Source of the DNA: Bacteroidales bacterium UBA4181
GTDB taxonomy: Bacteria; Bacteroidota; Bacteroidia; Bacteroidales; UBA4181
Assembly (NCBI GenBank): GCA_002380425.1
Contig: DFUR01000048.1
Location: 2,890-66,889 of the forward strand
Reading direction: 5' to 3'
Length of the DNA stretch: 64,000 bases
Shown here: one piece after another, positions 42,324-61,864 of the stretch
How positions within the stretch are numbered: position 1 is the first letter of the stretch
Layout: each line of letters begins with the position of its first letter
The notes under the pieces: model-generated
The model's database searches: none
Told to the model about the DNA's origin: nothing
The model's input: the letters and a program-made list of their open reading frames with translations, nothing else
Position numbers and translations under genes: made by a program

Positions 42324-42346
42324 AAGCAACCTTTAGTAGTAGTGTC

Positions 42347-43762: not shown

Positions 43763-43797
43763 AAGGTTCGGTTCTGTCAGGATTTTATTCTTATACG

Positions 43798-43835
43798 CGG
43801 CCGGATTCCTGAATATCCGGCCGTAACTTTTTTTT
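43798..43835 (+). terminator. Rho-independent terminator after gltD
   Basis: Perfect 9-bp stem CGGCCGGAT/ATCCGGCCG with an 8-nt loop, then a T9 run. A second 7-bp hairpin (43756-43783) overlaps the stop codon. Confidence 0.75.
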
Positions 43836-43898: not shown

Positions 43899-44028
43899 CA
43901 TCACCTGCGAAAATGTTTAAGGTGTTGGCGTTTTTGTAGTACCTTGTATTGCATAGTAATTTATTTTTCTAACTTTGAGGCTGGCTCTGCTGGTGTCAGA
44001 AGTGGAGAAATCAGTAACAATTATTGCG

Positions 44029-44919
44029 GTGAGTATTATTATTGAGGGTTTGACCAAAACCTATCCGAACGGAAATCATGCCCTTAAAGGGATTAACCTC
44101 CAAATTCCCCCCGGAATGTTTGGCTTGCTTGGCCCCAACGGGGCTGGAAAGTCGACGCTGATCCGGATTCTTGTAGCACTTATGGAACCTACAGAGGGAA
44201 AGGTTACCATGTTTGGGCATGACCTGCGCACTCAGAAACAGGAAATCAGGAAGATTCTGGGCTATCTGCCACAGGACTTCCGGTTTTTTGCCCGGTACAA
44301 AACTTATGAATTTCTCGACTATGCTGCCCGCCTTTCGGGGATGAACGACAGCAGGAAGCGCAAATCAGCCGTGGACGCGATGCTGGAGCAGGTGGGGCTG
44401 TACGAGGCCAGGGACCGGTATGCTGCTCGCCTGTCGGGTGGTATGAAGCGTCGCCTCGGTATTGCCCAGGCTTTGATTCATGAACCCAAGATCATTATTG
44501 TGGATGAGCCCACAACGGGTCTGGACCCTGAGGAGCGGATTCGTTTCCGCAACCTGCTTTCGCAGGTGAGTGCCCGGGACGTGTCGATTATTTTGTCAAC
44601 CCACATTGTGGGGGATATCTCCAGCTCTTGTACTTCAATGGCCTTGCTCAACAAAGGCGAAATATCTTTCTTTGGTTCTCCTGAGGAGATGTTGCGCCGT
44701 GCCGAAGGCAAGGTTTGGCTGGTTCGGGTGAGCAACAAAGATTTCAAGGAACTGACCAACAAGTATCCGGTTATTTCTACCATCCCGATTGATGATGGCT
44801 GGGAGGTACAGGTTGTGGCCGAAAAGTTGGATGGTTTCCGTGGAGAGAACATCGTGCCCAATCTGGAGCATGCCTATGTGTATTTTATGGATGCACAGCT
44901 TAACCAGTGGGCTGTATAG
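44029..44919 (+). CDS. ABC transporter ATP-binding protein (NBD1, ABC-2/NatA-like with a C-terminal extension)
   Basis: Walker A GPNGAGKST, Q-loop LGYLPQ, signature LSGGMKRR, Walker B IIIVDEPTTGLD, H-loop STHI. The start is moved from the track's TTG (43975) to the in-frame GTG at 44029, giving (M)SIIIEGLTKTY. Confidence 0.85.
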   Translation: MSIIIEGLTKTYPNGNHALKGINLQIPPGMFGLLGPNGAGKSTLIRILVALMEPTEGKVTMFGHDLRTQKQEIRKILGYLPQDFRFFARYKTYEFLDYAARLSGMNDSRKRKSAVDAMLEQVGLYEARDRYAARLSGGMKRRLGIAQALIHEPKIIIVDEPTTGLDPEERIRFRNLLSQVSARDVSIILSTHIVGDISSSCTSMALLNKGEISFFGSPEEMLRRAEGKVWLVRVSNKDFKELTNKYPVISTIPIDDGWEVQVVAEKLDGFRGENIVPNLEHAYVYFMDAQLNQWAV

Positions 44920-44937
44920 CCGGAACAGATAATTCAG

Positions 44938-47900
44938 ATGTCTATGCTTGTTCTTCACAATATTCTCTCAGTCGCCAAATACGAAAGTAAACTGCTGGTT
45001 CGCAGCTGGTTCTTTAAAGTGTTTTCGACCATTGCGGTGCTGGTTGCATTTGGCTACAGCCTGGGTACACTCAGTGATGCCGGGTCCCCAACCTGGCTGC
45101 TCCGCGCCATCCCTTCGACGATTCCTTACGGGACGCTTATTCTGCTGAATGCCGCGCAGGCGGTGATTGCCATCTTTCTGTCCTCGGAGTTTATCAAGAG
45201 GGACAAGCAGTTGGATACCTCAGAGGTGTTTTATGTGCGTCCGCTCAGCAATGCCGAGTATGTCATCGGGAAAACGTGGGGCAATCTGAGGGTATTTCTG
45301 GGTCTGAATCTGGTGATCCTGCTTATTGCGCTGCTGTTTAATCTAACAGCCAGCAATACATACGTTGACTGGTCGTCCTATCTTGTCTATTTTCTGTTGA
45401 TTAGTGTCCCCACCCTGCTGTTCATCATGGGAATGTCTTTTTGCGCCATGCTGTTGCTGAACAATCAGGCACTCACCTTTGTGGTGATGCTGGGATATGT
45501 GGGCCTGACATTGTTTGTGATTGGCGAGTTGGTGTATCACCTGTTTGACTACATGGCTTTTAGTCTGCCTATGTTCCGTTCCACCATTGTGGGTTTCAGT
45601 GGAATGGAAGAGATTCTGGTGCACCGCGGTATGTATCTGGCTGCTGGAATCGGGTTTATCTGTCTGACGATTTATCTGTTCAAACGATTGCCCCATGCCC
45701 CTCAGAGAAGATTCTGGTGGCTTCTGGTTTCACTGGTGTTCCTGATGGGCAGCGTTTTCCTTGGGTTCCGCTATGTACAGCGTTATGCCTCTGATCTGGA
45801 ACACAGACAGGCCCTGATAGAGCTCAATGATCAGTACGGTGGACTTCCGGTGATGTCGGTTCTGGAGTACAAGATGGATGTGGAGCAGTTGTCGGATGGT
45901 ATTCACGTGCGTTCCCGGATGCTCGCCCGTGCTCTGGACAGTGCCCGGGTATTTGTGTTCACCCTGAACCCGTATCTGGATATTATCTCTGTGAACGCCC
46001 CTCAGGAGCAGGTGCAGATGAAACGGGAACAACAGATTGTTTTGCTCGAGTTCGGACGTGAGATTCCGCGGGGGGACACTCTTATGCTGGAAATGGAGTA
46101 TCGGGGGGGGATTGATCAGTTGCTGTGTTTCCTGGACATTCCTGAGAAGAATCTTTTGGATAAGAATCGGGACAATAACATCAATTTTGCCAAGAGATAC
46201 GCCTTTCACAAGCCGAACTATCTTTTGCTGACTCCTGAATCCTTTTGGTATCCCAGACCAGGGACTGCTTTCAGTACCCGATACACAGGATGGCAGCAGT
46301 CTTTCTTCAGCCATTTTGATGTTTCTGTAAAACCATTGCCCGGCCTGGTACCAGTATCTCAGGGGAAGGTGGATACGCTGTCCGACGGGCGGATTCATTT
46401 CCTTCCTGAGGCTCCGCTCACGGGCCTCTCACTGTCCATTGGTCAATACGACAAGTTGTCTTTCCGGATAGACAGTGTGGATATGGAGTATGCCGTTTAT
46501 TATTTCAAGGGGCATGACTTTTTCACCCGGGGGCTGGATAGTATCAAGAAGGAGATTCCGGGCATCATCCATGAGCGCCGTTTGTCTCTGGAGCGGGACC
46601 TGAAACTTACTTATCCATTCAGGCGCTTTACCCTGGTGGAGGTCCCCGGCCAGTTTGCTGCCTATGCCAGGTCCTGGACTCAGGCACAGGAATGGACCCA
46701 GCCCGAGATGGTTTTTATTCCCGAGATGGCCTATGCCATGAGAGATGCAGAATTTGAACAGCAGGTGAAAATGCGCAGCAGGTTTATGCGGGAGCAGCGT
46801 TCCCTGCAGGATCGTCAGCGGGATGTGCTGAACAACTTTCTATTCAATTTTCAACGAATCAACGGGCGGCCCAACTTCCAGAGGAGCCGGGGTCAGACAT
46901 CCATTCAGCAGACGCCCAATCCATGGTATCAGTTTCCTCAGTTCTACGATTTTACATTCAACCTGTATTCCATTCGCTGGCCTGTGGCCAACCGTCTGGT
47001 GGCATCCTATCTGCAGAACACCAATTCCGGTGTGAACCAATATCAGCGTTCCTTATCCGGGATGTCCCCTGACGAAGAAGCCAGTGTGCTCCTCCAGGAA
47101 CACCCCCTGAGCCGTCTTTTGGCGGATACTGCCTATCGGGACCGGGTGAGCGGTGTGGTTTCGCTCAAGGCCCGCCAACTCTTTGCTTATGGAGAATTGC
47201 TCAAGGGCGAGGAGGATTTCCGCACCGTGGTGTCGAATATTGTCAAGGGAAAACCCTTCCAGAATGTGCGTTTTGAGAGTTTTCTCGGTGAATTGCGTGA
47301 CTCCACAGGGGTGGATATTCTGGACCGGATGGATGCCTGGTTCAACGTGATACAGGTGCCTCGCTATATCATCGGAATCCCCAGAGCCACCCGGGTTCGG
47401 AATGCACAGGAAACCAGGTTTGAAGTAGTGGAACAGATCACCAACAGTTCCGATGTGGAGGGCATTGTTAAGATTTCCCTCCAGTATAGTGGTGGCTGGA
47501 GTGACTCCGAGACCTCCCTGATGTACCTGGCTCCCGGACAGACCAAGGAGATTGTCATGGTGTCCGAAACCGATCCCCGATCCATGGTGATTCAAACCTT
47601 GGTTTCCTTGAACCTGCCTGGCTATGTGGAGCACACATTCTCGCAAGTGGAGCGTCAGCAGCGCAGGGTTCGTGACACCGGACAGTTTGTGGTGCAGAAT
47701 TCGGCTTTGTATGTTCCCGAAGGAGAAATTGTGGTGGATAATGAGGATGAGGACCTGTTCACGGTTACCACGCCCGATGTTACGGGTTTGCTTCAGACCT
47801 GGATGCAAAAAGCAGATGACAAAAAATCCAAGTATTCCGGTTATTCTTATTGGCGGGCTCCGATTCGCTGGACCCTGGTCACCAATTCGGGTTATTACGG

Positions 47901-48291
47901 GCAGTACGTTCGCTCTGCTCATATCATCCGTCCCGGAAATGGTTCCCAGGTGGCTACCTGGAGGGTTCCGCTGAAGGAGAGAGGACGCTATGACGTGTAC
48001 TATTATGCCTATAGAGAGCAGGAAGGCCGGCGCTTTGGCGGTGGTCCCGGTGGTCAGGGAGGACGAGGCGGATTTGGCGGCAGAGGACAACGAGGGGAAT
48101 ATAACCTGAGAATCCGTCAGGGCGCTACCCTGAACGAGCCTGCCTCCATTGAGTTTTGGGGCAGTGCCGGCTGGGTGCTTGTGGGAACCTATATTCTGGA
48201 GGCAGACACAGCGTACGTGGATCTTACCAATAAAGCAGAGATGAATATGAATATTGTCGCCGCCGATGCGGTCAAATTTGTGAAACGATAA
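44938..48291 (+). CDS. Giant ABC-2-type permease: ~7 TM helices (first ~280 aa) fused to an ~830-aa predicted periplasmic region
   Basis: Seven hydrophobic helices fall within aa 25-280. The rest is soluble with no HExxH motif. The C-terminal ~170 aa looks like a beta-sandwich ending ...IVAADAVKFVKR. An internal Gly/Arg tract is present. Confidence 0.7.
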   Translation: MSMLVLHNILSVAKYESKLLVRSWFFKVFSTIAVLVAFGYSLGTLSDAGSPTWLLRAIPSTIPYGTLILLNAAQAVIAIFLSSEFIKRDKQLDTSEVFYVRPLSNAEYVIGKTWGNLRVFLGLNLVILLIALLFNLTASNTYVDWSSYLVYFLLISVPTLLFIMGMSFCAMLLLNNQALTFVVMLGYVGLTLFVIGELVYHLFDYMAFSLPMFRSTIVGFSGMEEILVHRGMYLAAGIGFICLTIYLFKRLPHAPQRRFWWLLVSLVFLMGSVFLGFRYVQRYASDLEHRQALIELNDQYGGLPVMSVLEYKMDVEQLSDGIHVRSRMLARALDSARVFVFTLNPYLDIISVNAPQEQVQMKREQQIVLLEFGREIPRGDTLMLEMEYRGGIDQLLCFLDIPEKNLLDKNRDNNINFAKRYAFHKPNYLLLTPESFWYPRPGTAFSTRYTGWQQSFFSHFDVSVKPLPGLVPVSQGKVDTLSDGRIHFLPEAPLTGLSLSIGQYDKLSFRIDSVDMEYAVYYFKGHDFFTRGLDSIKKEIPGIIHERRLSLERDLKLTYPFRRFTLVEVPGQFAAYARSWTQAQEWTQPEMVFIPEMAYAMRDAEFEQQVKMRSRFMREQRSLQDRQRDVLNNFLFNFQRINGRPNFQRSRGQTSIQQTPNPWYQFPQFYDFTFNLYSIRWPVANRLVASYLQNTNSGVNQYQRSLSGMSPDEEASVLLQEHPLSRLLADTAYRDRVSGVVSLKARQLFAYGELLKGEEDFRTVVSNIVKGKPFQNVRFESFLGELRDSTGVDILDRMDAWFNVIQVPRYIIGIPRATRVRNAQETRFEVVEQITNSSDVEGIVKISLQYSGGWSDSETSLMYLAPGQTKEIVMVSETDPRSMVIQTLVSLNLPGYVEHTFSQVERQQRRVRDTGQFVVQNSALYVPEGEIVVDNEDEDLFTVTTPDVTGLLQTWMQKADDKKSKYSGYSYWRAPIRWTLVTNSGYYGQYVRSAHIIRPGNGSQVATWRVPLKERGRYDVYYYAYREQEGRRFGGGPGGQGGRGGFGGRGQRGEYNLRIRQGATLNEPASIEFWGSAGWVLVGTYILEADTAYVDLTNKAEMNMNIVAADAVKFVKR
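48025..48096 (+). repeat. Gly/Arg-rich low-complexity tract (GRRFGGGPGGQGGRGGFGGRGQRG) within the giant permease
   Basis: Direct translation of 48025-48096 in the ORF frame. Confidence 0.9.
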
Positions 48292-48305
48292 AGACACCTA
48301 CCTTT

Positions 48306-49793
48306 ATGAAGAAAATCTGGTTAATTATGATGTGTTTTCTGGGCTGCACCGGTTTTGCTCAGGGCCAAACGGTGATCACCCTGGAAAAAGCTATGGAGAT
48401 TGCGGCTGAACACAGCCCCTCTATCCGGAGGGTCCGGCTCAACCTTGACAGGACGCGTTACAACCTGCAGGCTCAGAATGCTGCTTTGAAGTCAAGCTTC
48501 TCTATGTCTGTGAACCCGCTTTCCTATTCCCAGTCAAGGCGTTTCGATGAGCGGATTTCTACATGGTACACCAATAAGTCTATGTCTTCCAGCGGTACTT
48601 TCCAGATATCCCAGCCTATTCTCTTGACAGATGGAACGATATCTCTGGTGAACCGTTTTAGCTGGCAGGATAATGAGTCGGACCAGGGTGGAATCACCTC
48701 CAACAACAAAGCATTCACGAACAATCTGAACCTGCAGCTCACCCAGCCCCTGTTCACGTACAACACCCGTAAAATGGAACTCAAGGAGCTGGAGTTTGAC
48801 TATGAGAATGCACACCTGAATTTTGCAGTCCAGATGTTGAATCTGGAGCGTCAGGTTTCTCAGTTGTTTTACAATGTGTACATGGCGCAGATGAATCTCG
48901 ATATTGCCCGTGAGGAGTTGAACAATGCCGAACAAAATTTCGAGATTATCAAGAACAAGGTGGAAGCCGACTTGTCGGCCCGTGAGGAATTGTATCAGGC
49001 GGAGGTCAATATTGCTACCTCCCGGTCCTCGTTCCAGAACAGGGTGGTGTCCTTCGAGGAGGCAAAGGATATTTTTAAACTCAACCTGGGAATGGATCTG
49101 GATGAAGATATTGTCATTTCTGCCAACGTAGAGGCCAGCCCTGTTCCGGTGGATGAGAAACTGGCCCTGGAAAATGCACTTCGTTCCCGGATTGAGTTGC
49201 GCCAGCGGGAAATCACCTACGAGAATTCGGTGTTCCAGATGATTCGGGTGAAGGCTCAGAATGAGTTTCGGGGCAATCTGAATCTTTCGGTGGGGATTAT
49301 CGGGGACAACCGTACGATTGGGGATATCTATCAGAATCCTACGCAAAACCCTTCGGTGGCTCTGACCTTTAATGTGCCCATTTTCGACTGGGGTGCCAAG
49401 AAAGCCCGGATCAAGGCTCAGGAGGCTACCATGGCCAGCAATGAGATTGATGCCGAACAGGAGCGTAAAGAAATCATCCTGAATGTGCGTCAGGTATTCC
49501 GGAATTTGCAGAATCAGCTGACGCAGATTGATATTGCCAGTCAGAACGTACGCAATGCACAGCTCACCTATGACCTCAATCAGGAGCGGTATCGCAACGG
49601 TGATCTCCGGGGTTTGGATATGAATCAATATCAGACCCAGCTTTCCAGTCGCAAAATCGCTCATGCACAGGCTTTGATCAACTACAAACTGGAGTTGCTC
49701 AATATGAAGATTCAGTCGATGTACGACTTCGAAACCAATACCCCTCTGGTTCCCTCCGAGTTGGTCCAGAAGGGAGAAATCAACCGCAATTAA
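48306..49793 (+). CDS. TolC-family outer membrane efflux protein
   Basis: Signal peptide, two OEP repeats with long coiled helices, typical LEKAMEIAAEHSPSIR start; 495 aa. Confidence 0.9.
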   Translation: MKKIWLIMMCFLGCTGFAQGQTVITLEKAMEIAAEHSPSIRRVRLNLDRTRYNLQAQNAALKSSFSMSVNPLSYSQSRRFDERISTWYTNKSMSSSGTFQISQPILLTDGTISLVNRFSWQDNESDQGGITSNNKAFTNNLNLQLTQPLFTYNTRKMELKELEFDYENAHLNFAVQMLNLERQVSQLFYNVYMAQMNLDIAREELNNAEQNFEIIKNKVEADLSAREELYQAEVNIATSRSSFQNRVVSFEEAKDIFKLNLGMDLDEDIVISANVEASPVPVDEKLALENALRSRIELRQREITYENSVFQMIRVKAQNEFRGNLNLSVGIIGDNRTIGDIYQNPTQNPSVALTFNVPIFDWGAKKARIKAQEATMASNEIDAEQERKEIILNVRQVFRNLQNQLTQIDIASQNVRNAQLTYDLNQERYRNGDLRGLDMNQYQTQLSSRKIAHAQALINYKLELLNMKIQSMYDFETNTPLVPSELVQKGEINRN

Positions 49794-49801
49794 TTATCAT
49801 T

Positions 49802-50878
49802 ATGAAGCTCTTAAGTAATATTCCCATGAAATCATTCATCCCGGCACTCCTCATCCTGGCAGGCGCCCTGGTTTCCTGCAACAACAATTTTCAGCAGGTT
49901 CAGACAGACATTGCAGCCCCGGTTTCGGTTTCTGAAATCAAGAAGGGTACGATACATCAGCTGGTCAATACCACAGGAACTGTGTTTGCCCGCGCCGAAG
50001 TCCAGTTGTCTTCGGAGATGGCTGGCCGGTATTCTCTGCAGGTGAACCCGTCCACCGGTAAGCTATACAAAATGGGCGACCGGGTGAAGAAAGGTCAGGT
50101 GATTGCTCGTTTCGAGGATCAGGAGTTTGTCAACGGACTCGGTCTGGATGCCAAGAAGCTTAACCTCGAGATTGTTAAGCAGACACAGGAGAAGCAGGCA
50201 TCCCTGTACGAGAAAGGTGGCGTGACCCTGAGTGAACTGCGCAATGCCGAGGTGTCCCTCACCAACGCCCAGCTCAGTTATGACAATGCATTGCTTCAGG
50301 CGCAACGTATGGAAGTTAAGGCTACCATTGACGGGGTGATTACCGATCTGCCCTATTATACGCAGGGAGCACGTGTGAATCAGAACAGTCTGGTTGTGGC
50401 TATCATGGACTATTCCAAAATGTACATGGAAATCAACCTCCCTGAAAGTGTCATTTCTACCATCAAGGTAGGTCAGGATGCCCGGGTGACACACTACACC
50501 CTCCCAGAAGACACTCTGAGTGGGGTGATTGATGAACTTTCCCCGGCAATCAGTGCGGAGACCCGGACATTCAAGGGCCGTCTGGTCATAGCTAATCCCG
50601 ACCTGCTGCTTCGTCCCGGTATGTTTGTCAAATCGGATATAGTGGTGGCTACCGCAAGTGAGGTGGTCCTGATTCCCAAGGAAGTCATCAGTACTACCCG
50701 GAACCGGAAATCGGTGTACGTTGTGGAGAACAACACTGCTATTCAAAAGAGGATCACCACAGGTTTGGAAGATGAGTTGAATGTTGAGGTACTCACTGGG
50801 TTGAATGCAGGGGAAAGCCTTGTTACCAGGGGCTTTGAGTCTTTGCGCGAGGGCGCCAAGGTTAAAGTGATTAACTAA
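49802..50878 (+). CDS. Efflux RND periplasmic adaptor (MFP/HlyD family) lipoprotein
   Basis: Lipobox LAGALVSC plus barrel-sandwich/hairpin motifs (TGTVFARAEVQLSSEMAGR, ATIDGVITD, RPGMFV). Confidence 0.9.
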   Translation: MKLLSNIPMKSFIPALLILAGALVSCNNNFQQVQTDIAAPVSVSEIKKGTIHQLVNTTGTVFARAEVQLSSEMAGRYSLQVNPSTGKLYKMGDRVKKGQVIARFEDQEFVNGLGLDAKKLNLEIVKQTQEKQASLYEKGGVTLSELRNAEVSLTNAQLSYDNALLQAQRMEVKATIDGVITDLPYYTQGARVNQNSLVVAIMDYSKMYMEINLPESVISTIKVGQDARVTHYTLPEDTLSGVIDELSPAISAETRTFKGRLVIANPDLLLRPGMFVKSDIVVATASEVVLIPKEVISTTRNRKSVYVVENNTAIQKRITTGLEDELNVEVLTGLNAGESLVTRGFESLREGAKVKVIN

Positions 50879-50885
50879 CCGGGAT

Positions 50886-53800
50886 ATGAGAAAGGTTGTA
50901 CAATTTGCCGTGAACAATCCCGTCACGATCACTATGATCGTGCTGGCGGTATTGCTCCTGGGCTTTATCTCCTATGATAAGTTGGGTATAGATTTGCTAC
51001 CCAACCTAAATAACCCCAGACTGTTCGTGGAGATCAAGGCCGGTGAAAGCCCTCCCGAGGAGATTGAATCACAGTATGTCCAGAACATTGAGGCGTTGGC
51101 CATCCGTCAGCGCGATGTGGTGAAGGTGTCTTCCATTGTTCGCGCCGGTGCTGCTCAGATCATGGTTGAGTTTGCCTGGAACAAGGATATGGACGAGGCT
51201 TTCCTGGATTTACAGAAGGCTTTGAATAATGCCTCGGCTGGACTGGATGAGTTGAATATTACCCAGCATGATCCCAATATGTCCCCCGTTGTGCTGGTTT
51301 CCATGAGTCATGCCGAAATCAGGGATATGGCAGAGCTGCGTAAAGTGGCTGAGAGCTATGTCCGCAATGAGTTGATTCGTATTGAGGGAATTGCTGATGT
51401 GCAACTCTCCGGTGAAGAGGTTACCGACCTGGTGATTGAAACAGATCCCTACCGTCTGAAGGCGTTCAACCTGACAATGGATGAACTGGCTTCGCGTATT
51501 GAAAGCGCCAACCGGAATCTCACGGGAGGGCGTGTGAGTGAGTACGGAGTGCAGTATATTGTCAAGGGGGTGGGTTTGTTAACCGACACGAAGGATTTTG
51601 ATAACCTTATTGTGGGTTACCGTGCCGTGCAGGCTGGAACTACAACCGCTCAGGCTGCCGGAGGGCAGAATATGGCGCCCGTTTTTCTGCGTGAGGTGGC
51701 CAATGTGCGTTTTGAGAACAAGCGCCCGGAAAGCATTGTCCGGATGAACGGTCAGCGGTGCATTGGTTTGTCTGTTTACAAGGAAACCCGCTACAACACG
51801 GTGCAGGCGGTCAACGAAGTGGTTGCTGAACTCGCCAATATCTCCAAGGCCTTACCCGGTTATTCGTTCAATGTGGTCACCAACCAGGGAGCGTTTATCA
51901 ACAATGCCATCGGTGAAGTGAAGGATACCGCGGTGCTGGGGATTGTTCTGGCGGTACTGGTACTCTTTGTATTCCTCCGGAGGGTGGGCACTACCCTGAT
52001 TATCAGTGTTGCTATTCCCGTTTCGATTGTGGCTACATTCAACCTGATGTATTTTAATGACCTCACTCTGAATATTATGACCCTGGGTGGTCTGGCGTTG
52101 GGGGCTGGTATGCTGGTGGATAATGCCATTGTGGTCATCGAGAATATTGTCCGGAATCACGAACGGGGGTTACCTCCGCAGGAGGCCGCTGTCACCGGTG
52201 GTCACGAGGTATCCGGAGCGGTGATTTCGTCCACGTTGACCACCATTGTGGTCTTTCTGCCCATTGTTTACCTCCACGGGGCTTCCGGGGAGTTGTTCAA
52301 GGATCAGGCCTGGACGGTTGCTTTTTCCCTGTTGTCTTCCCTGGTTGTGGCACTGTTGGTGATACCCACCCTGTATTATCGGGTGTACAAGTCCAAACAC
52401 CACAATAGTACGGAGCAAAAAACAGTTCATCTCAAGGGCTACGGTCAGTTTGTGAAACGGATTCTGCCTTATCGATGGCCGGTAATCTTTATCGCTTTGG
52501 CCTTGATGGCTGTGACAGCGTTGATTGTGCCTTCTATCGGTACGGAATTTATGCCTAAGGCTGAATCCGAGTCCCTGAATATCTCCATCAAGTTGCCCGA
52601 GGGAAGCCGCCTGGAGCGCACCCAGGGCGTTGTGGAAACCATGGAGCAGTTGTTGAAATCAACGGTGGGGGACAGTATGGATATATACTCCCACATTGGT
52701 CCCAACAGCGGAACGGTTAACTCAGTATTTGAAGGGGAGCATACAGCTCTGATCCGGGTGCATTTTTTTGGGAGCAGCGGAGCTGCTCAGCGGGTGATTG
52801 CCGCTTTCTCTGAGTATGCGAACAATGTGGAAGGCTTGCAGATTTCTTTCAAACAGGATGATTCTGCCCTCAGTTCCTTACTTGGGACCGAATCAGCCCC
52901 TGTGGTTGTGGAAATCAAGGGAGAGGATCTGGATAAACTTGAGGAAATTGCCGGAGTCGTCCGGCAGCGTATGGACAGCATTCAGGGCCTGTACAATGTC
53001 ACCTCTTCGATTGAGGACGGAGCTCCCGAAGTTGAGATTTTGTTAGACAGGACCCGGACCGGTATGGAGAACCTCAGCCTTTCTGCTGTGGTGGGGCAGG
53101 TGCAGCAGCAACTTACCGGTCGTGAGAGCGGACAGTTGGATTATTCCGGTGAGATGCGGGATATCATCATTCGTGTTCCCGAGAAAGATCTGGCTTCGCT
53201 CCCCGGGATGATCATCAGGGTGGGACAGCGGGAATATCGTCTGGAAGAGTTGGCACAGATACGCACATCTGTGGCTCCGGGAGAGATCTTCAGGAGGAAC
53301 CAGAGCCGTATTGCCCAGATTTCTGCAGACCTTGCTTCTTCGGTGAGTTTGGGACAGATGGCTTCGAGGATAGAGCAGACCATGGAGGATATCGAGTTGC
53401 CTCCAAATTATCAGATTTCGGTAACCGGGCAGGAAGAGCAAAGGCGTGATGCCATGAGCAATCTGCTTTTTGCCCTGATGTTGTCCGTGGTGCTGGTGTA
53501 CATGGTGATGGCGTCCCAGTTTGAGTCCCTGTTGCATCCGTTCACCATTCTGTTGACGATTCCGCTGGCAGTGGTCGGAGCCATCCTTATGTTCTGGTTT
53601 ACCGGAACGACCATCAATATTATGGGTGTGATTGGTATGGTGATGCTGGTGGGGATTGCGGTCAATAATGCTATTATTCTGGTGGACCGAATCAATCAGA
53701 TCAAACGTACCGGAGTGGAACTTCCTGAAGCCATTGCGCAGGCGGCTCAGCAGCGTATTCGTCCCATTCTGATGACCAGTCTTACCACTATTCTGGCTCT

Positions 53801-53975
53801 TTTGCCACTGGCCCTTGGGGCAGGTGAGAGTGCGGAGTTGCGTTCTCCTATGGCCTTAGCTGTGATCGGAGGATTGTTCACATCTACGGCCCTTACTCTG
53901 GTTGTCATTCCCTGTGCCTATTCCCTGATGGAAGGCCTGAAGCGCTTATTTGTCAGAACACCCGCAGAGAATTAA
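50886..53975 (+). CDS. Efflux RND transporter permease (RND1, AcrB/SwrC-like)
   Basis: 1029 aa with 12-TM/2-loop architecture. TM4 motif GMLVDNAIVVIEN and TM10-11 motif GIAVNNAIILVD. Confidence 0.95.
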   Translation: MRKVVQFAVNNPVTITMIVLAVLLLGFISYDKLGIDLLPNLNNPRLFVEIKAGESPPEEIESQYVQNIEALAIRQRDVVKVSSIVRAGAAQIMVEFAWNKDMDEAFLDLQKALNNASAGLDELNITQHDPNMSPVVLVSMSHAEIRDMAELRKVAESYVRNELIRIEGIADVQLSGEEVTDLVIETDPYRLKAFNLTMDELASRIESANRNLTGGRVSEYGVQYIVKGVGLLTDTKDFDNLIVGYRAVQAGTTTAQAAGGQNMAPVFLREVANVRFENKRPESIVRMNGQRCIGLSVYKETRYNTVQAVNEVVAELANISKALPGYSFNVVTNQGAFINNAIGEVKDTAVLGIVLAVLVLFVFLRRVGTTLIISVAIPVSIVATFNLMYFNDLTLNIMTLGGLALGAGMLVDNAIVVIENIVRNHERGLPPQEAAVTGGHEVSGAVISSTLTTIVVFLPIVYLHGASGELFKDQAWTVAFSLLSSLVVALLVIPTLYYRVYKSKHHNSTEQKTVHLKGYGQFVKRILPYRWPVIFIALALMAVTALIVPSIGTEFMPKAESESLNISIKLPEGSRLERTQGVVETMEQLLKSTVGDSMDIYSHIGPNSGTVNSVFEGEHTALIRVHFFGSSGAAQRVIAAFSEYANNVEGLQISFKQDDSALSSLLGTESAPVVVEIKGEDLDKLEEIAGVVRQRMDSIQGLYNVTSSIEDGAPEVEILLDRTRTGMENLSLSAVVGQVQQQLTGRESGQLDYSGEMRDIIIRVPEKDLASLPGMIIRVGQREYRLEELAQIRTSVAPGEIFRRNQSRIAQISADLASSVSLGQMASRIEQTMEDIELPPNYQISVTGQEEQRRDAMSNLLFALMLSVVLVYMVMASQFESLLHPFTILLTIPLAVVGAILMFWFTGTTINIMGVIGMVMLVGIAVNNAIILVDRINQIKRTGVELPEAIAQAAQQRIRPILMTSLTTILALLPLALGAGESAELRSPMALAVIGGLFTSTALTLVVIPCAYSLMEGLKRLFVRTPAEN

Positions 53976-53985
53976 CACCGGACCC

Positions 53986-56900
53986 ATGAATGTTTTGATC
54001 AACAGAAAGGTAACCATTTTCATGCTGTTTCTGAGCATTACCCTGCTCGGGTATGTCTCATACAAACAGTTGAAAGTCGAGCTTCTCCCAAATGCGGAGC
54101 TGCCCATGCTGTACGTTCAGGTTAATGCCCGGACCGAGATGGATCCGGCCTACCTGGAATCGCAGGCGGTGATGTATCTTGAAGGCGTCATAACCACCAT
54201 GAGTGGTGTGGAAGAGGTGGAGTCGCTTATCAACACCCGGAACGCGACCATCACGGTTAGTTTCAAACAGAACGTCAATTTCAACTATATCTATCTGCAA
54301 CTGCAGGAGCGCATCAAGGAGGCTTCTGTGCAGCTTCCGGAGGAATTCACTGTGAACCTTTCCCGCGGGAATTCGGTGTCTATGACCAGCAATTTCATGT
54401 CCTTGCAGGTTCTGGGTTCCGGAGGAGTGGACCGGGTTCGTAGCTTGTTTGACGAGGAGGTGCTCGAGGATCTGGAAAATATCGAGGGGATTGCCGCTGT
54501 ATCTGTGTTTGGCGGCCGTCAGAAAACCATTGAGGTTCAGATGAACCGGGAAATGTGTGAGGCCCTGAACCTGACCCCTTCGCGTCTTCAGAGCATCATT
54601 ACTCAGAATAGTCAGGGACGTACCTATGTGGGCAATGCAGAGGAGAGTTTCCGTCAGTATTTTGTGTATGTTCAGTCGGAATACAAGCATGTGACCGATA
54701 TTGAAAATATCGTGGTTGCTCCCGGTCCTATTCTTCTCAAGGATGTGGCCAATGTGTTTTTTGATGTCAAGGATGAGACCAATATCAGCCGGGTCAACGG
54801 TAAAGAAGAAATCTCCGTTTCTCTGATCAATGATTCCCAGGCCAATATGATTGACCTCTCTGACAGGGTACTGGCAGCCATTGAACGGATCAACCAAAAG
54901 ATGAAACCCCTGGATGTGGAGTTGGTTGTGCAGAGCAACGCTGCTGAGGAGATTGAGGAAAACATCGGAAATATTGTTCAGACGGCTCTGTTAGGAGGGT
55001 TGCTCGCCATCTTTGTGCTCTGGGTGTTTCTCAGGAATCTCCGGCTGGTAGTGTTGATTGCTGTTTCGGTGCCCATCTCAATCTTTTCGGCCTATAATTT
55101 CTTTTACGCCTTTGGCGTTACCATCAACAGCCTCACCCTGATCGGGATGGCTCTGGCCGTGGGGATGCTGCTCGATTGCAGTATTGTTGTTCTGGAGAAT
55201 ATATACAGGCTGGCTTCCCAGGGAAATCCGCCGGATAAGGCGGTAACCCAGGGTACCCGGGAGGTATGGCGGTCTATCGTAGCTTCAACGCTCACTACTG
55301 TGGTGGTGTTTGCACCGTTCATTTTCTCGGACAACTATCTGATTGAACTTTTGGGCCTTCAGATAGGGGTGTCTATCATCTCCACTCTGGTTCTTGCCAT
55401 GTGTGTGTCGTTGTTGTTCACACCCATGCTTGCTCATTTGATTTTGTTGGGGCGCAGTCGCAGGAATGCCTTGTTTCAGACGGTATCCATTCGGCAGAAG
55501 GTTGTGCAGCGTTATTTGGTGATTCTCAAGGCCTGTATGAGGCGCCCTGTACCTACCATTCTGGGAGGAGTGATTTTGTTGGTTGTTTCCGTACTTCTGG
55601 CCCTTTCGGTGAGTATTACAAGTATGCGCCAGGTAGATACGGACCGCTTCAATATTTCCGTGCAACTGCGTCAGGGAACGACCCTTGAGGCTACCGATCA
55701 GGTGGTGCTTTCGTTGGAACAGTCCATTGACTCCATTGCCGAGATCAAGGATGTTGTATCCCGTATTCAGGAGGCTGAGGCGGTGATTACCGTGATTCTC
55801 AAAGAAGATTACGAAAAGATTGCCAAGCGCAGTATGTCGGTCATCCGTCAGGATGTGGAGGACCGTGTACGGACTGTGTCCTCTGCCGAAATCAATGTTT
55901 CTCAGGCTACCGGGGGCGGAGGCGGAGCTTCTGCAGGTGCTGTTTCCGGAATGATGAACCTCATGCGTCTGCTGGGTATCGGGGAAAACAGTGAGCGGAT
56001 TATCCTCAAAGGCAGAGATTTTGAACTCATGCAGTCCGTTGCTACCGATATCCGGTATTATCTGGATGAACTGGAGTCGGTACAGTATTCCCGGATTTCT
56101 TCCACTGGAAACCGGCCCGAAGTGCATCTTACCTTTGATCAGGAGTTGCTGAATCAGTATGGAATCACGCAAGCCAACCTGTCTTCAGAACTGGCCTCAG
56201 TGAGCAATGTGTCCTCTTCGGGTGCTCGTATGACATTGGGGGATGAAGAATACGATATTCTGATTCGTCAGTATTTGGAGGATGAGGAGGAGGAACAATC
56301 ACAGGCACAGACAAAAAACCTGACCGACTTAAAAAACACCATGATTCGCAGTCAATCGGGGGGGATTCATCAGCTCCAGAGTATTGCGGGGGTGAATATG
56401 GCCACGGGTAAATCCTCCATCAGGAGGTTGAATCAGGAAAAACTTATAGAGATTTTTTATTCGTTCCCTCAGGAAACACAGGAGTCTAAGGAATTGCTGG
56501 AGTCGTACCGTCTGGAGATCGACCAGCTCATTGCTGGCTATCCGTTGCCAGCGGGGATTGCCATTGAAGTGGTGCATGAAGAGGATCTCTTCGCTGATTT
56601 CAAGTTCCTGATTCTTGTTGCTTTTGTGTTGATCTACATGATCATGGCGGTGGTGTTCGAGTCCTTCTTTACCCCCTTCGTGCTGATGTTCTCTATCCCG
56701 CTGGCGGCCATCGGTTCGCTGCTGGCCCTGGTTGTTACCGGGAACAGCCTGCTGAGTGCCAATACGCTCATAGGGTTTATTATTCTGTTGGGTGTGGTGG
56801 TGAATAACGGGATTATTCTGATAGATTATTCCAATATTCTCCGTAGCAGGGGCTATCGCCGTACCCGTGCTCTGCTGACCTCGGGACTTGCCCGGTTGCG

Positions 56901-58686
56901 TCCTATTCTGATTACGTCCATCACTACCATTGTGGCCCTGCTGCCCATGGCCTTGGGTGAGAGCGGATATGCCGGGATGATAGGTGGTCCTTTTGCCGTA
57001 ACGGTGATTGGGGGGCTTGCCTGTTCATCGTTGCTCACCCTGATATTTGTGCCCACGGTGTATATCTCCCTGGAGAATGCGCTGGATTGGTACAAAACCC
57101 TGAGTGTGAAGATGAAGTTGTTCCATCTTTTGCTGTTCCTGTTCGGGGTGTATCTGATTGTCACACGGATTGAAGGTATTCTTTCCCAGGCTGGTTATCT
57201 GGTATTGCTTGCGGTGGTCATCCCTGCGGTTACGTTCTTTGTTCGTACCAGTCTGCGCAGAGCTGATACCAAATTGATCCCCGAGGAGGAGCCCATTCGT
57301 ATCACTATCAGTAATTTGGTGAAGATTTACGACCGTTCCGGAAGTTTCCTCCGTGAGTGGAAGGCCGGAGATGCACTTCGCGCCCGGCTGGGCCTGAAGG
57401 AAGAATACCACTCGCTGCGGGATTTTGGCAGTCTGGTGTGGCAGTTGCCTCTGCTGGGTTTCCTGATCTATTTTGCCTATTTCTATCTGGACCACAAGTT
57501 CTGGACCTATGTCCTTTCTTTTGTGGTGTTCGTGTTCGTCCGCACTCTTTGGGGAATGATGCGTTCGTGGCTGGAGTACCATCGTGGAACTCCAAAATGG
57601 CTGAATCGCCTGGATCGGATGGTCTTCTGGGGTGTGCCCCTGATTCTTACTGTGGTGATTTTCTCCAAATGGGACAATCCGGGTATGTCCACTCTGGCAG
57701 CCTTCTCATGGTTCCTGATGTTGGGTATCTACGCCACTTCCGATTATCTCTACTCCCGGGAAATCAATATTGACCGTATCGAAGGCCGTATGGCCGGTCT
57801 GCGCAGAGCTCTTGCGCGGTTGGTGAAGACCATTCCTGTTCTGGGCAAACGTCGTCAGCCCTTCAAAGCTCTCAAAGGGGTATCCTTTGAAATCAATACC
57901 GGTATGATTGGCTTGCTGGGCCCCAATGGTGCGGGCAAATCGACTTTTATGCGCATCATTTGCGGCATTCTGGACCAGAGTTACGGTAAAATATGGATCA
58001 ACGGATACGATACAGAACGCTACCGCGAGGAGTTGCAGTCACTAATCGGCTTCCTGCCTCAGGAGTTTGGTATGTATGAGCATATGAGCGCTGAGAGTTT
58101 TCTGGATTTTATGGCCATTCTCAAGGGGATCACCAATCCTGAAACCCGTGCACAACGCATTGAGTATGTCCTCAAATCGGTGCATATGTACGAGAAGAAG
58201 GATCATAAAATTTCTTCCTTCTCCGGTGGTATGAAACAACGAATTGGTATTGCACTGATTCTGCTTCATCTCCCCAGAATTCTTGTGGTGGATGAGCCCA
58301 CTGCCGGCCTGGACCCCAGAGAGCGTATCCGTTTCAGGAATCTGCTGGTCGAACTCAGCCGCGACAGGATTGTGATCTTTTCTACCCATATCATTGAGGA
58401 CATTGCCAGTTCGTGTAATCAGGTCGTGGTCATCAATAAGGGAGACCGGAAGTATTTCGGCAATCCTCGAGAGATGGTGCATCTGGCTTCGGGCAAGGTT
58501 TGGGTGTTTACGATGGACTTAGAGACCTTTGAAGCACTGCCCGATATGTCGCTGGTGGTTCATCATGTACAGGAAGGCAATCAGGTCAGGGTGCGTTATA
58601 TTTCGCGCACACAGCCTGCTCCGGGAGCGGTTCTGGTGGAACCAAACCTCGAAGATGCCTATTTGTGTTTACTGAAGAATATCTGA
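53986..58686 (+). CDS. Fusion protein: complete RND permease (RND2), 2 TM, then an ABC ATPase (NBD2) carrying a 4-TM insertion
   Basis: One uninterrupted frame of 1566 codons. RND motifs are GMLLDCSIVVLEN and GVVVNNGIILID. The C-terminal part has Walker A GPNGAGKST, Q-loop IGFLPQ, signature FSGGMKQR, Walker B ILVVDEPTAGLD and H-loop STHI. The start is set at the ATG at 53986, 10 nt after the RND1 stop. Confidence 0.85.
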   Translation: MNVLINRKVTIFMLFLSITLLGYVSYKQLKVELLPNAELPMLYVQVNARTEMDPAYLESQAVMYLEGVITTMSGVEEVESLINTRNATITVSFKQNVNFNYIYLQLQERIKEASVQLPEEFTVNLSRGNSVSMTSNFMSLQVLGSGGVDRVRSLFDEEVLEDLENIEGIAAVSVFGGRQKTIEVQMNREMCEALNLTPSRLQSIITQNSQGRTYVGNAEESFRQYFVYVQSEYKHVTDIENIVVAPGPILLKDVANVFFDVKDETNISRVNGKEEISVSLINDSQANMIDLSDRVLAAIERINQKMKPLDVELVVQSNAAEEIEENIGNIVQTALLGGLLAIFVLWVFLRNLRLVVLIAVSVPISIFSAYNFFYAFGVTINSLTLIGMALAVGMLLDCSIVVLENIYRLASQGNPPDKAVTQGTREVWRSIVASTLTTVVVFAPFIFSDNYLIELLGLQIGVSIISTLVLAMCVSLLFTPMLAHLILLGRSRRNALFQTVSIRQKVVQRYLVILKACMRRPVPTILGGVILLVVSVLLALSVSITSMRQVDTDRFNISVQLRQGTTLEATDQVVLSLEQSIDSIAEIKDVVSRIQEAEAVITVILKEDYEKIAKRSMSVIRQDVEDRVRTVSSAEINVSQATGGGGGASAGAVSGMMNLMRLLGIGENSERIILKGRDFELMQSVATDIRYYLDELESVQYSRISSTGNRPEVHLTFDQELLNQYGITQANLSSELASVSNVSSSGARMTLGDEEYDILIRQYLEDEEEEQSQAQTKNLTDLKNTMIRSQSGGIHQLQSIAGVNMATGKSSIRRLNQEKLIEIFYSFPQETQESKELLESYRLEIDQLIAGYPLPAGIAIEVVHEEDLFADFKFLILVAFVLIYMIMAVVFESFFTPFVLMFSIPLAAIGSLLALVVTGNSLLSANTLIGFIILLGVVVNNGIILIDYSNILRSRGYRRTRALLTSGLARLRPILITSITTIVALLPMALGESGYAGMIGGPFAVTVIGGLACSSLLTLIFVPTVYISLENALDWYKTLSVKMKLFHLLLFLFGVYLIVTRIEGILSQAGYLVLLAVVIPAVTFFVRTSLRRADTKLIPEEEPIRITISNLVKIYDRSGSFLREWKAGDALRARLGLKEEYHSLRDFGSLVWQLPLLGFLIYFAYFYLDHKFWTYVLSFVVFVFVRTLWGMMRSWLEYHRGTPKWLNRLDRMVFWGVPLILTVVIFSKWDNPGMSTLAAFSWFLMLGIYATSDYLYSREINIDRIEGRMAGLRRALARLVKTIPVLGKRRQPFKALKGVSFEINTGMIGLLGPNGAGKSTFMRIICGILDQSYGKIWINGYDTERYREELQSLIGFLPQEFGMYEHMSAESFLDFMAILKGITNPETRAQRIEYVLKSVHMYEKKDHKISSFSGGMKQRIGIALILLHLPRILVVDEPTAGLDPRERIRFRNLLVELSRDRIVIFSTHIIEDIASSCNQVVVINKGDRKYFGNPREMVHLASGKVWVFTMDLETFEALPDMSLVVHHVQEGNQVRVRYISRTQPAPGAVLVEPNLEDAYLCLLKNI
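57334..57864 (+). other. ~177-aa membrane insertion (4 predicted TM helices) between NBD2 strand beta-1 and the Walker A strand
   Basis: ITISNLVKIYD (matches NBD1 IIIEGLTKTYP) is separated from KALKGVSFEINTGMIGLLGPNGAGKST (matches NBD1 HALKGINLQIPPGMFGLLGPNGAGKST). The intervening segment contains LVWQLPLLGFLIYFAYFYL, FWTYVLSFVVFVFVRTLWGMM, MVFWGVPLILTVVIFS and LAAFSWFLMLGIYATSDYL. Confidence 0.75.
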
Positions 58687-58688
58687 GT

Positions 58689-59396
58689 ATGAAGAAGAAT
58701 CAATTATTTCAAATCCTGTTGCCCCTGATGAGGTACAATCTGAAGGTGATTTTTGCCGGGAAGTTTGTCTGGTTCTTTCTGGCTGCCCTTGGATTTTTTG
58801 TGTTCTTCATGATCAACAATGTCTGGCAGGGAAATCTGATCAATGAGGCACTGATGTACGAGATTCTGTTCTTCCCGGGGGTACTTCTTATTTTCTATCC
58901 CTCCGTTTATGGGATACAGAACGATGAAGATGCCCGTATTCTGGAAATCCTTTTCGGAATTCCCAATTATCGTTACAAGGTGTGGCTGTTTCGTCTCTTG
59001 ATGGTGTATCTGATCTTTTTTTGCTTTCTGGTGCTGTTTGCCTGGATCGGGACTTTCCTGCTGTTCCCAGTTCCCCAGTTTGAAATGGCCGGTCAGTTGA
59101 TGTTTCCCTTGTTGTTTCTGGGAAATATGGCCTTTATGATGTCCACCTGGGTGCGCAGCGGTAATGCGACGGCTGTCATCATGATTATCGTCGGGATCCT
59201 GATGGTCGTACTGACCAGTGCCTTTGGGCTGAAATGGTGGAACATTACCCTCAATCCGTTTGAGGTCCCCGAGAACTTGCATGTGGTTATCTGGGCCGGA
59301 TACCTGACTAAGAGCCGGATCTTTCTGGCTGTGGGCAGTGTGGTGTTCTTACTCATTGGTCTGCTCAATCTACAGAAACGGGAACGTTTTGTGTGA
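58689..59396 (+). CDS. Six-TM membrane protein, probable ABC-2-type permease partner
   Basis: 235 aa and very hydrophobic, with ~6 helices. The ATG lies 2 nt after the fusion gene's stop. Family assignment rests on context only. Confidence 0.6.
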   Translation: MKKNQLFQILLPLMRYNLKVIFAGKFVWFFLAALGFFVFFMINNVWQGNLINEALMYEILFFPGVLLIFYPSVYGIQNDEDARILEILFGIPNYRYKVWLFRLLMVYLIFFCFLVLFAWIGTFLLFPVPQFEMAGQLMFPLLFLGNMAFMMSTWVRSGNATAVIMIIVGILMVVLTSAFGLKWWNITLNPFEVPENLHVVIWAGYLTKSRIFLAVGSVVFLLIGLLNLQKRERFV

Positions 59397-59442
59397 TCCT
59401 TGACGGGGCATCCCTTTTTTGGTCCCGAGGTTATGCAATTTC

Positions 59443-59477
59443 GCACGAATTGTTTATATTTGTAAAACAATTCGTGC
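59443..59477. promoter_or_regulatory. Perfect 13-bp inverted repeat (GCACGAATTGTTT-N9-AAACAATTCGTGC) enclosing a TATATTTG -7 box; candidate operator
   Basis: The arms are at 59443-59455 and 59465-59477. The -7 box is at 59455-59462, 22 nt upstream of the ATG at 59485. Confidence 0.5.
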
Positions 59478-59484
59478 GTGTGCT

Positions 59485-59775
59485 ATGGGAGTTCAACCCG
59501 AAGTGATCGGAGGTTTGCGTGACAGGATTCACAAGTTGATGGAGGTTGCGCAACAGGTTCGCAAGGAGAACGAAGAGTTGAAAGCCCTGGTGGGCCGGCT
59601 TCAGTCGGACCTGCGTACGAAGGTGGCGGAGCAGAGTGAGTTGCGCGAGCGGTATCAACGGTTGAAGATGTCAAAAACCTTTGGCCCTGATGAAAACTCA
59701 GCAAGGGAAACGAAGCTCCAGGTAACCAGAATTGTGCGGGAAATTGACAAATGTATCGCGCTTCTGAATCGTTAA
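59485..59775 (+). CDS. Small coiled-coil protein upstream of zapA (function unknown)
   Basis: 96 aa, heptad-rich (KENEELKALVGRLQSDLRTKVAEQSELRERYQRLK). The start is moved from the track's TTG (59419) to the ATG at 59485. Confidence 0.6.
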   Translation: MGVQPEVIGGLRDRIHKLMEVAQQVRKENEELKALVGRLQSDLRTKVAEQSELRERYQRLKMSKTFGPDENSARETKLQVTRIVREIDKCIALLNR

Positions 59776-59787
59776 CAGAGGGATGGT

Positions 59788-60081
59788 ATGGACGAGAGGC
59801 ATTCAATAAGAATCAATATCGCTGAACGCTACTATCCGCTCAAAATAGATAAAGAAGAAGATGAGGAGCGCCTTCGGAAGGCAGCTGTGCTGATCAATGA
59901 TCGGTTAGGTAGTTACCGGCAGCGCTACTCTGATAAAGATGTTCAGGATTTGCTGGCCATGGTGGCACTGCAGTTTGTGGTCCGGCTGCTTGAACTGGAA
60001 AGAAAAAGCGATTCTTCCATGGTGGAAGGGCAACTCAGGGAGTTGACGCAAACTGTGGATGAGTTTTTAAACCAGATATAA
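59788..60081 (+). CDS. zapA: Cell division protein ZapA
   Basis: IRINIAERYYPLKIDKEEDEERLRKAAVLINDRL...AMVALQFV is the typical ZapA pattern; 97 aa. Confidence 0.85.
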   Translation: MDERHSIRINIAERYYPLKIDKEEDEERLRKAAVLINDRLGSYRQRYSDKDVQDLLAMVALQFVVRLLELERKSDSSMVEGQLRELTQTVDEFLNQI

Positions 60082-60104
60082 TCGTTCTTTTACATAAGAA
60101 GAGT

Positions 60105-60306: not shown

Positions 60307-60328
60307 ATAACCATTATATATCCCCTTT

Positions 60329-61861: not shown

Positions 61862-61864
61862 CAC

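Follow-up and report, generated by a model that had tools for sequence, protein, structure and literature searches.

Tripartite efflux pumps of the textbook kind are powered either by the proton-motive force (PMF), through permeases of the resistance-nodulation-division (RND) family, or by ATP, through MacB-type transporters from the superfamily of ATP-binding cassette (ABC) proteins. In Escherichia coli, the YbhGFSR and YhiI-RbbA-YhhJ systems consist of ABC-2-class ATPases and six-helix ABC-2 permeases that are co-encoded with a membrane-fusion protein. YbhFSR has been described (PMC7190983, in part). It is also established that efflux can proceed in two steps, in which a single-component exporter moves the substrate from the cytoplasm and an RND tripartite pump then expels it (reviewed in PMC4338810, in part), and MdtBC is the known RND heterotrimer (PMC8277102, in part). 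Here, we describe a locus in which both kinds of engine are encoded as one protein. It lies in a 64,000-nucleotide stretch of DNA from Bacteroidales bacterium UBA4181 (contig DFUR01000048.1, positions 2,890 to 66,889; hereafter the window), where a single open reading frame (ORF) joins an RND permease to the nucleotide-binding domain (NBD) of an ABC transporter. Together with its neighbors, it forms a tripartite efflux system in which the inner-membrane engine is a composite without precedent. A preliminary description of the ORF, made from the sequence alone, had stated that no characterised protein was known to join the two engines, and the literature gave none: no description of an RND-ABC fusion was found in the portions covered of the full-text literature and of a 2021 Chem Rev review, with TCDB, InterPro, and subscription journals outside the scope. 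Public records name the members of the family only generically, for example as 'efflux RND transporter permease subunit' or 'ATP-binding cassette domain-containing protein'.

The ORF and its two principal domains are the following.

53986..58686, plus strand: gene 6 of the operon, the RND::NBD fusion, 1566 aa (translation, Pfam, NCBIfam, conserved frame in other loci)
53986..57090, plus strand: RND domain, aa 1-1035, with 12 predicted transmembrane (TM) helices and two periplasmic loops (ACR_tran match, alignment to MdtB and MexB)
57853..58683, plus strand: predicted ATPase core and C-terminal domain, aa 1290-1566 (ABC_tran; DrrA/GldA class; Walker A K1318, Q1359, SGGMKQR, D1436/E1437, H1468)

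Translation of 53986-58686 on the plus strand gives 1566 codons with a lone stop at the end, which bears out the single frame first reported. The longest ORF opens upstream, at a TTG at position 53950, and homologues align from the ATG at 53986 (MNVLINRK...). Pfam ACR_tran matches the N-terminal part over essentially the whole profile (aa 2-1029 against profile positions 3-1020 of 1021; 527.7 bits versus a cut-off of 28; E 7e-158). Along its entire length, this part shares 29% identity with the neighboring 1029-aa RND permease, the paralogue that the first ~1035 residues had already been said to parallel. Further downstream, ABC_tran matches aa 1296-1440 (101 bits versus a cut-off of 25; E 1e-28), and Pfam, NCBIfam, and Foldseek all call an NBD in the C-terminal part. 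Every catalytic motif quoted in the preliminary description is found there: GPNGAGKST (K1318), LPQEFG (Q1359), FSGGMKQR, ILVVDEPTAGLD (E1437; D1436), and STHI (H1468). By these assignments, a complete RND permease and a catalytically complete ABC NBD share one polypeptide.

Profiles in NCBIfam place the N-terminal part among multidrug RND permeases and the C-terminal part nearest to the GldA/DrrA ATPases of the ABC-2 class. The RND part scores below the curated cut-offs (RND_permease_2, 456 versus 1250; MdtB, 249 versus 1584; MdtC, 237 versus 1774; RND_permease_1 and AcrB likewise), as does the fused NBD for GldA (TIGR03522, 177.5 versus 402.6) and DrrA (TIGR01188, 167.1 versus 312.45); its likeness to GldA and DrrA, as judged from the profiles, is at class level only. 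The RbbA profile of NCBIfam also matches the fused NBD, and profile searches in Pfam and NCBIfam gave no match of the fusion to MacB/FtsX. The closest structural neighbors of the ATPase in Foldseek are TM_1403, ABCA4/7/1, NosF, and LptB. Profiles and model thus both point to an ATPase of the ABC-2 class.

A fused frame of this kind could in principle be an artefact, created by an indel that removed the stop between two genes or seen in a decaying pseudogene, and the preliminary description had singled out a stop-erasing indel as something to be excluded. Contigs from three different Joint Genome Institute (JGI) metagenome samples carry the same DNA: two (L165 and L166) span the whole ORF and one (L164) its 3' 2.4 kb including the junction, all 99.96-100% identical to the window and gapless. 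One of them differs by two substitutions, and hence is an independent assembly. We also scanned genomes, taking one per species. At least 33 loci matched the linker and ATPase, 30 of them with enough upstream DNA, and 29 of these 30 have an intact frame of 1565-1616 codons. In a separate metagenome scan, the junction is open in 43 of the 43 loci that reach it. Frameshift-broken genes in two loci, L001 (652 + 931 aa) and L031, would speak for an artefact, but both are contigs of metagenome-assembled genomes (MAGs) with contig_N naming, consistent with long-read assembly, and their neighboring genes are fragmented too. Other gene-calling pipelines yield products of 1554-1563 aa with both ACR_tran and ABC_tran, and an exhaustive search of the cluster representatives at 50% identity gave 20 of 1550-1594 aa, whose RND parts are down to 30% identical to the query. 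No stop-erasing indel is seen in any of the three assemblies, and a count of fused versus split orthologues, also proposed earlier, comes out as fused in all but one of these 30 genome loci, in all 43 metagenome loci, and in the 20 long representatives. These counts were drawn from DNA loci and the representative library because the protein index seems to be without very long proteins and would understate fused architectures. As a side observation, this index returned no homologue above 940 aa, missing the 1566-aa product of the window and returning its 222-aa product.

Conservation is uneven along the protein. Among 31 orthologues, mean pairwise identity is 75% in the NBD core (78 of 211 columns invariant), 52% in the RND part, and 30-45% in the linker parts. 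None of the 31 has lost Walker A, the Q-loop, the signature, Walker B, or the H-loop, which speaks against an artefact. The fused ATPase is under strong selection. The artefact explanation is refuted, and the ORF is a genuine, selectively maintained gene fusion. Its carriers include Bacteroidales (a Proteiniphilum MAG, Parabacteroides-like strains, and Rikenellaceae), Marinilabiliales (Draconibacterium, Prolixibacter, Maribellus, and Mariniphaga), Cytophagales (Marivirga), a Calditrichaceae MAG, and Latescibacterota MAGs. Many of the loci come from human-gut metagenomes and several from cultured strains; Marivirga tractuosa, Prolixibacter bellariivorans, Draconibacterium mangrovi, and Parabacteroides massiliensis are among the cultured carriers. 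A contig assigned to an 'uncultured Eubacteriales' bin (L033), and thus to a Firmicutes order, also has a complete operon of the same type; since this operon has an outer-membrane factor gene, the assignment probably reflects a binning error and not a Gram-positive carrier.

Between the RND domain and the ATPase core, three further elements can be delineated.

57115..57246, plus strand: putative TM13-TM14 hairpin, aa 1044-1087 (hydropathy; model helices 12-32 and 36-65 of the C-terminal fragment; charges)
57283..57342, plus strand: putative detached ATPase β-strand 1 with A-loop Tyr1115, aa 1100-1119, EEEPIRITISNLVKIYDRSG (model strands at fragment residues 77-88)
57433..57759, plus strand: putative four-helix membrane insertion, TM15-TM18, aa 1150-1258 (hydropathy, model, charges)

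We modeled only aa 1030-1566 with AlphaFold2 (predicted local distance difference test (pLDDT) 75; predicted TM-score (pTM) 0.49, at which the placement of the helices against the ATPase is unreliable). Hydropathy and the model agree on the order of elements after TM12, namely TM13-TM14, the β-strand IRITISNLVKIY, an amphipathic helix, TM15-18, a further helix, the ATPase core, and the C-terminal domain. Across 25 aligned fragments, L, V, K, and Y are invariant in the LVKIY core of the strand motif NLVKIYDR. The free-standing paralogous ATPase encoded by the first gene of the operon has the same strand motif only ~8 residues before its equivalent of FKALKG. When aa 1100-1119 are spliced directly to aa 1290-1566, the start of the match in the GldA profile moves from 16 to 3 with a gain of 3.9 bits; shuffled and reversed splice controls gave neither a longer GldA match nor a bit gain. 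Thus, the contiguous β1-β2 hairpin with an A-loop aromatic that is expected of ABC ATPases is interrupted here: β-strand 1 (Tyr1115) and β-strand 2 are separated by ~170 residues that contain four TM helices. Profile, alignment, and model together indicate that a membrane insertion, placed behind the first β-strand, splits the fused ATPase.

The extra hydrophobic helices previously reported, KLFHLLLFLFGVYLIVT and GYLVLLAVVIPAVTFFV, are present, and the count of 12+2+4 helices given for the protein is right; however, the last four sit inside the ATPase, between β1 and β2, and do not form a spacer before the NBD. The fragment model, a check suggested at the outset, agrees with hydropathy on the 2 + 4 helices. 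As the number of added helices is even, the ATPase stays on the cytoplasmic side, and the charges support this topology under the positive-inside pattern: the four proposed cytoplasmic stretches of the extension contain 29 Lys and Arg residues versus 1 in the three short proposed periplasmic loops. The earlier view that the fusion is topologically coherent, with a cytoplasmic NBD, therefore fits both lines of evidence. In the 31 orthologues, TM15-TM18 show ~30% mean pairwise identity with conserved Trp and Pro positions. We also considered that the extra helices might be a degenerate ABC-2 permease and rejected this, the linker giving an hhalign E of 0.18 and a probability of 0.3% against the profile of the small permease that is encoded next to the fusion.

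The fusion is the sixth gene of a tight seven-gene operon at 43975-59396 on the plus strand, with gaps of 2-18 nt. The other six genes are as follows.

43975..44919, plus strand: gene 1, free-standing ABC-2-class ATPase, 314 aa (ABC_tran E 2e-33)
44938..48291, plus strand: gene 2, putative large permease, 1117 aa (weak ABC2_membrane_2 match, Golvesin_C match, hydropathy)
48306..49793, plus strand: gene 3, outer-membrane factor (OMF) of the TolC family, 495 aa (Pfam OEP E 8e-42; conserved synteny)
49802..50878, plus strand: gene 4, periplasmic adaptor (membrane-fusion protein, MFP), 358 aa (HlyD_D23 match; TIGR01730 RND_mfp, 183.5 bits versus a cut-off of 94.9)
50886..53975, plus strand: gene 5, plain RND permease RND1, 1029 aa (ACR_tran E 9e-214)
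58689..59396, plus strand: gene 7, putative small six-helix permease, 235 aa (AlphaFold2 model, pLDDT 81.6, pTM 0.79)

An adaptor and an OMF are thus co-encoded with the fusion, as in RND tripartite efflux systems. The order of genes 2 to 7 is found in nearly all genome loci, and that of genes 1 to 6 is consistent in 80 of 80 metagenome loci, allowing for contig ends. RND1 is always directly upstream of the fusion in the loci of this type (long type) from genomes and metagenomes, and the OMF and adaptor genes are conserved in nearly all of them. Gene 1, whose best NCBIfam matches are DrrA and GldA (both below cut-off), is 41% identical to the fused NBD, the C-terminal domain included, and orthologues with 71-73% identity occupy the same position in the metagenome loci that reach far enough upstream. 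The protein encoded by gene 2 begins with ~280 residues resembling an ABC-2 permease, with 6-7 TM helices, and continues with an ~830-aa domain with a Golvesin_C-like end, for which no solved relative was found. Nearly all loci reaching that far have this gene immediately upstream of the one for the OMF; scanning metagenome contigs with the single 1117-aa protein gave no match, and an alignment-based scan did find loci.

The start codon of gene 7 lies 2 nt past the stop codon of the fusion, and the gene follows the fusion in every locus with enough downstream DNA. Its product has 5281 database relatives and gave no significant match in Pfam, NCBIfam, or sequence and profile searches of the PDB. 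The top Foldseek matches of its model are nearly all TM domains of type-V ABC transporters, including ABCG2, PmtCD, chain B of CcmABCD, NosY, ABCG5/8, and ABCG25, with query-normalised TM-scores mostly of 0.43-0.60 and E values of only 0.03-1.

The search of representatives also revealed a second, short type of RND::NBD fusion, with 1389-1445 aa and without TM13-18. Here, TM12 is followed by a Trp/Arg-rich stretch, ATPase strand 1, a soluble insert of ~30-65 aa, and Walker A, so that the soluble insert takes the place of the four-helix insertion of the long type. The short types, in which TM13-18 are missing, confirm that the RND part ends in the cytoplasm and that what is conserved is the fusion rather than the extra helices. 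In one short-type locus (L173), the same seven kinds of parts are encoded but arranged otherwise, namely as adaptor, free ATPase, small ABC-2 permease, RND, large permease, RND::NBD, and OMF. The small permease passes the Pfam threshold for ABC2_membrane_2 (30.5 bits versus 27.2), and the large permease, with weak ABC2_membrane_2 and Peptidase_M1 matches, overlaps the fusion by 4 nt. This rearranged set suggests that the parts behave as one unit. In two further loci (L167 and L172), a large M1-like protein directly precedes the short-type fusion.

Large proteins of the gene 2 kind, with an ABC-2-like N-terminus and an extension of 600-830 aa, form a family with additional members at L173:7314-10001, L167:3-2276, and L172:1-1998. 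The extension shows only weak Peptidase_M1 and Golvesin_C matches, and the family accompanies the long-type fusions and three of five short-type contexts. A different architecture was seen in three representatives (P0292, P0316, and P0377), RND permeases of 1394-1517 aa that carry a C-terminal TolC-family OMF domain with a signal-like hydrophobic helix in between. They match both ACR_tran and OEP in Pfam (OEP 156.9 bits in P0316), an odd joining of inner- and outer-membrane components that may imply cleavage.

The preliminary description had presented two engines in one protein. Both are indeed complete, but since the conserved operon contains a second ABC ATPase and two putative ABC-2-type permeases, two engines acting on one pump is only one of several readings. 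We favor a model in which the fused ATPase powers the adjacent ABC-2-type permease or permeases while being tethered to the RND-MFP-OMF pump, giving a hard-wired two-step efflux system with two energy sources; in our estimate, this model has about an even chance of being correct. The fused ATPase would be catalytically active and would dimerise; its partner would be another copy of the fusion or, as the more appealing option, the free paralogue encoded by gene 1. This dimer would drive the ABC-2-type permeases encoded alongside, and the covalent tether and extra helices would dock the resulting ATP-driven extractor or flippase onto an MdtB2C-like heterotrimer of RND1 and the fusion. The ABC part would take the substrate from the cytoplasm or inner leaflet and hand it directly to the proton-driven RND-adaptor-OMF conduit for passage across the outer membrane. 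The four ABC parts would then be one, probably heteromeric, ABC-2 module tethered to the RND heterotrimer. A single module is the simplest reading because ATPases of this class dimerise and grip the coupling helices of type-V permeases, because long-type operons always encode two candidates for such permeases along with a second ATPase, and because the pairings of adjacent genes are swapped in the rearranged short-type locus.

An RND1-fusion heterotrimer is plausible by analogy, since the two RND paralogues are adjacent and anciently diverged (29% identity) and MdtB is the best solved relative of both. Several points nevertheless weigh against the favored model. Contact between the fused ATPase and either permease is an assumption of the model. 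The RND trimer and the ABC dimer are mismatched in symmetry; the mismatch disappears if a trimer has a single fusion protomer that pairs with the free ATPase, or if it has two fusion protomers, but this stoichiometry is pure inference. The position of the helices relative to the ATPase in the AlphaFold2 model is unreliable (pTM 0.49). The assignment of gene 7 to the type-V fold is consistent but statistically weak (Foldseek E 0.03-1), and the comparison of gene 7 with the small permease of the rearranged locus gave an hhalign E of 0.0046 with a probability of only 7.6%. Finally, the short-type fusions of L169/L170 and L171 are without an ABC-2 permease, adaptor, or OMF gene within 10 kb, so that the ATPase may not always need an ABC-2 partner.

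These same contexts lend some weight to a different mechanism, in which the fused ATPase couples directly to the RND TM domain via TM13-18 or the short linker, and either drives the RND transport cycle or gates it, by itself or jointly with the PMF, without a canonical ABC permease. Some short-type fusions are orphans, the extra helices show no relation to ABC-2 permeases and could therefore serve specifically for coupling, no part of the protein is better conserved than the ATPase core, and the fusion is kept down to ~30% RND identity. On the other hand, the orphan genes may have partner permeases at other sites in their genomes, ATPases of this class act through type-V coupling helices and candidate permeases of that kind are strictly co-encoded in the long-type operon, and three ATPase domains per trimer cannot all pair as canonical dimers. 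On balance, we consider direct coupling unlikely. If the ATPase did drive the RND permease itself, for which the chances are low, the orphan short-type fusions would be the minimal form of an ATP-powered or ATP-gated RND.

The proton relay of the RND half bears on this alternative as well. The motif strings GMLLDCSIVVLEN (TM4, D397) and GVVVNNGIILID (TM10, N940), initially described as matching, are present, but they represent a non-canonical relay variant that is clade-wide rather than tied to the fusion. In alignments to MdtB and MexB, the fusion keeps D397, R970, and T977, with C398 in place of AcrB D408 and N940 in place of AcrB K940. The canonical HAE-1 relay (AcrB D407, D408, and K940) is thus incomplete, with the Arg and Thr of TM11 kept. 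Asn is found at the D408 position in most fusion orthologues, and both RND paralogues of the operon are without equivalents of D408 and K940. Among the 150 nearest representatives, ordinary unfused RND permeases of ~1030 aa have Asn at both positions in 68 cases versus Asp and Lys in 8, and across the RND clade the two positions co-vary, Asp with Lys or Arg and Asn with Asn. From these alignments, the variant appears to be a clade-wide RND trait unlinked to the fusion. We therefore rejected loss of the proton relay as a sign of ATP drive: the Asn/Asn pair prevails in unfused RNDs of the clade and gives no sign that proton coupling was replaced in the fusion, which further counts against direct coupling. 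Independently of the fusion, an Asn/Asn relay in a large group of otherwise ordinary RND pumps suggests a different design of the proton relay.

Compared with the favored model of an ABC-2 module that feeds the RND pump, a more modest role for the fusion would be that of a tether only. The ABC-2 transporter and the RND pump would then act on different substrates or steps, and the fusion would provide co-localisation, equal expression, co-assembly, or ATP sensing and regulation without handing over substrate. Fusions between operon neighbors are common and are no proof of mechanistic coupling, conservation is lowest in the linker regions (30-45% identity), and the order of the parts varies between lineages. 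Against this, the fusion has persisted, with two designs of the linker, across deep divergence, the seven genes are strictly co-inherited, and a four-helix insertion inside an ATPase is elaborate for a passive link. We regard a mere tether as improbable, to about the same degree as direct coupling.

The flanks of the operon hold genes of other kinds, and one further feature marks its 5' boundary.

43797..43824, plus strand: strong terminator-like hairpin at the 5' operon boundary, closing gltBD-like genes (10-bp stem with 7 G-C pairs, then a T-run)

The gene before the hairpin, at 42347-43762, encodes a glutamate-synthase small-subunit-like protein (471 aa), the last member of a nitrogen-assimilation cluster at 35598-43762 (plus strand) that also encodes a type III glutamine synthetase of 730 aa and the glutamate synthase large subunit of 1501 aa. 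A scan for sigma-70 promoters gave no more sites than in shuffled sequence; such a scan does not cover Bacteroidota promoters. Downstream, 59419-63799 (plus strand) encodes a 118-aa coiled-coil protein, ZapA, RNase Y, and a 644-aa protein with a transglycosylase domain. The same genes follow gene 7 in L164, and the contigs L165 and L166 break off inside or shortly past the first two to four of these genes; loci from other genera differ here (L001 and L162).

If the ATP-driven module does feed the RND pump, the locus would be a natural, hard-wired case of two-step efflux that could be used to study how substrates are handed over from the inner membrane to a trans-envelope conduit. If instead the ATPase acts on the RND permease, it would be the first RND powered or gated by ATP, or by ATP and the PMF, which would be categorically new and would overturn the assumption that these pumps run on ion gradients only. 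On either reading, the locus defines an uncharacterised system for export across the envelope, in a phylum that matters to the ecology of the gut and the sea, and it is widespread, given that the small permease has more than 5000 database relatives and that the fusion loci span several orders and phyla. The split NBD, in addition, indicates that an ABC ATPase tolerates a membrane domain inserted into its core.

Of the described systems, the HAE-1 pumps AcrAB-TolC and MdtABC-TolC (MdtB2C) share several traits with this locus: the fusion has the full ACR_tran fold (12 TM helices and two loops), genes for an adaptor and an OMF are part of the operon, and two RND paralogues are adjacent as in mdtBC. 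Unlike in those pumps, ~530 extra residues extend one paralogue by six TM helices and an ABC ATPase, substitutions are seen for D408 and K940 (C/N and N, respectively), and the scores are far below the NCBIfam cut-offs. As in MacAB-TolC, there is a covalent link between an ABC ATPase and an inner-membrane component whose partners are an adaptor and a TolC-family channel. However, MacB is a dimer in which the NBD comes first, followed by four TM helices and a periplasmic domain (type VII fold), whereas here the ATPase is C-terminal to a 12-TM RND permease, resembles the ABC-2 class (DrrA/GldA/NosF), and has putative type-V-fold permeases alongside. The YbhGFSR and YhiI-RbbA-YhhJ systems, in contrast, are without an RND component or an ATPase-RND fusion, and their ATPases are not split by a membrane insertion. 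NosF, NosY, and chain B of CcmABCD are among the nearest structural neighbors of the fused ATPase and small permease, but the likeness to NosDFY and CcmAB does not extend to family membership at the sequence level, and the operon is without nos or ccm genes. The proposed logic is that of known two-step efflux, with the difference that the known cases involve separate, unlinked proteins, whereas here the two steps would be fused and co-inherited.

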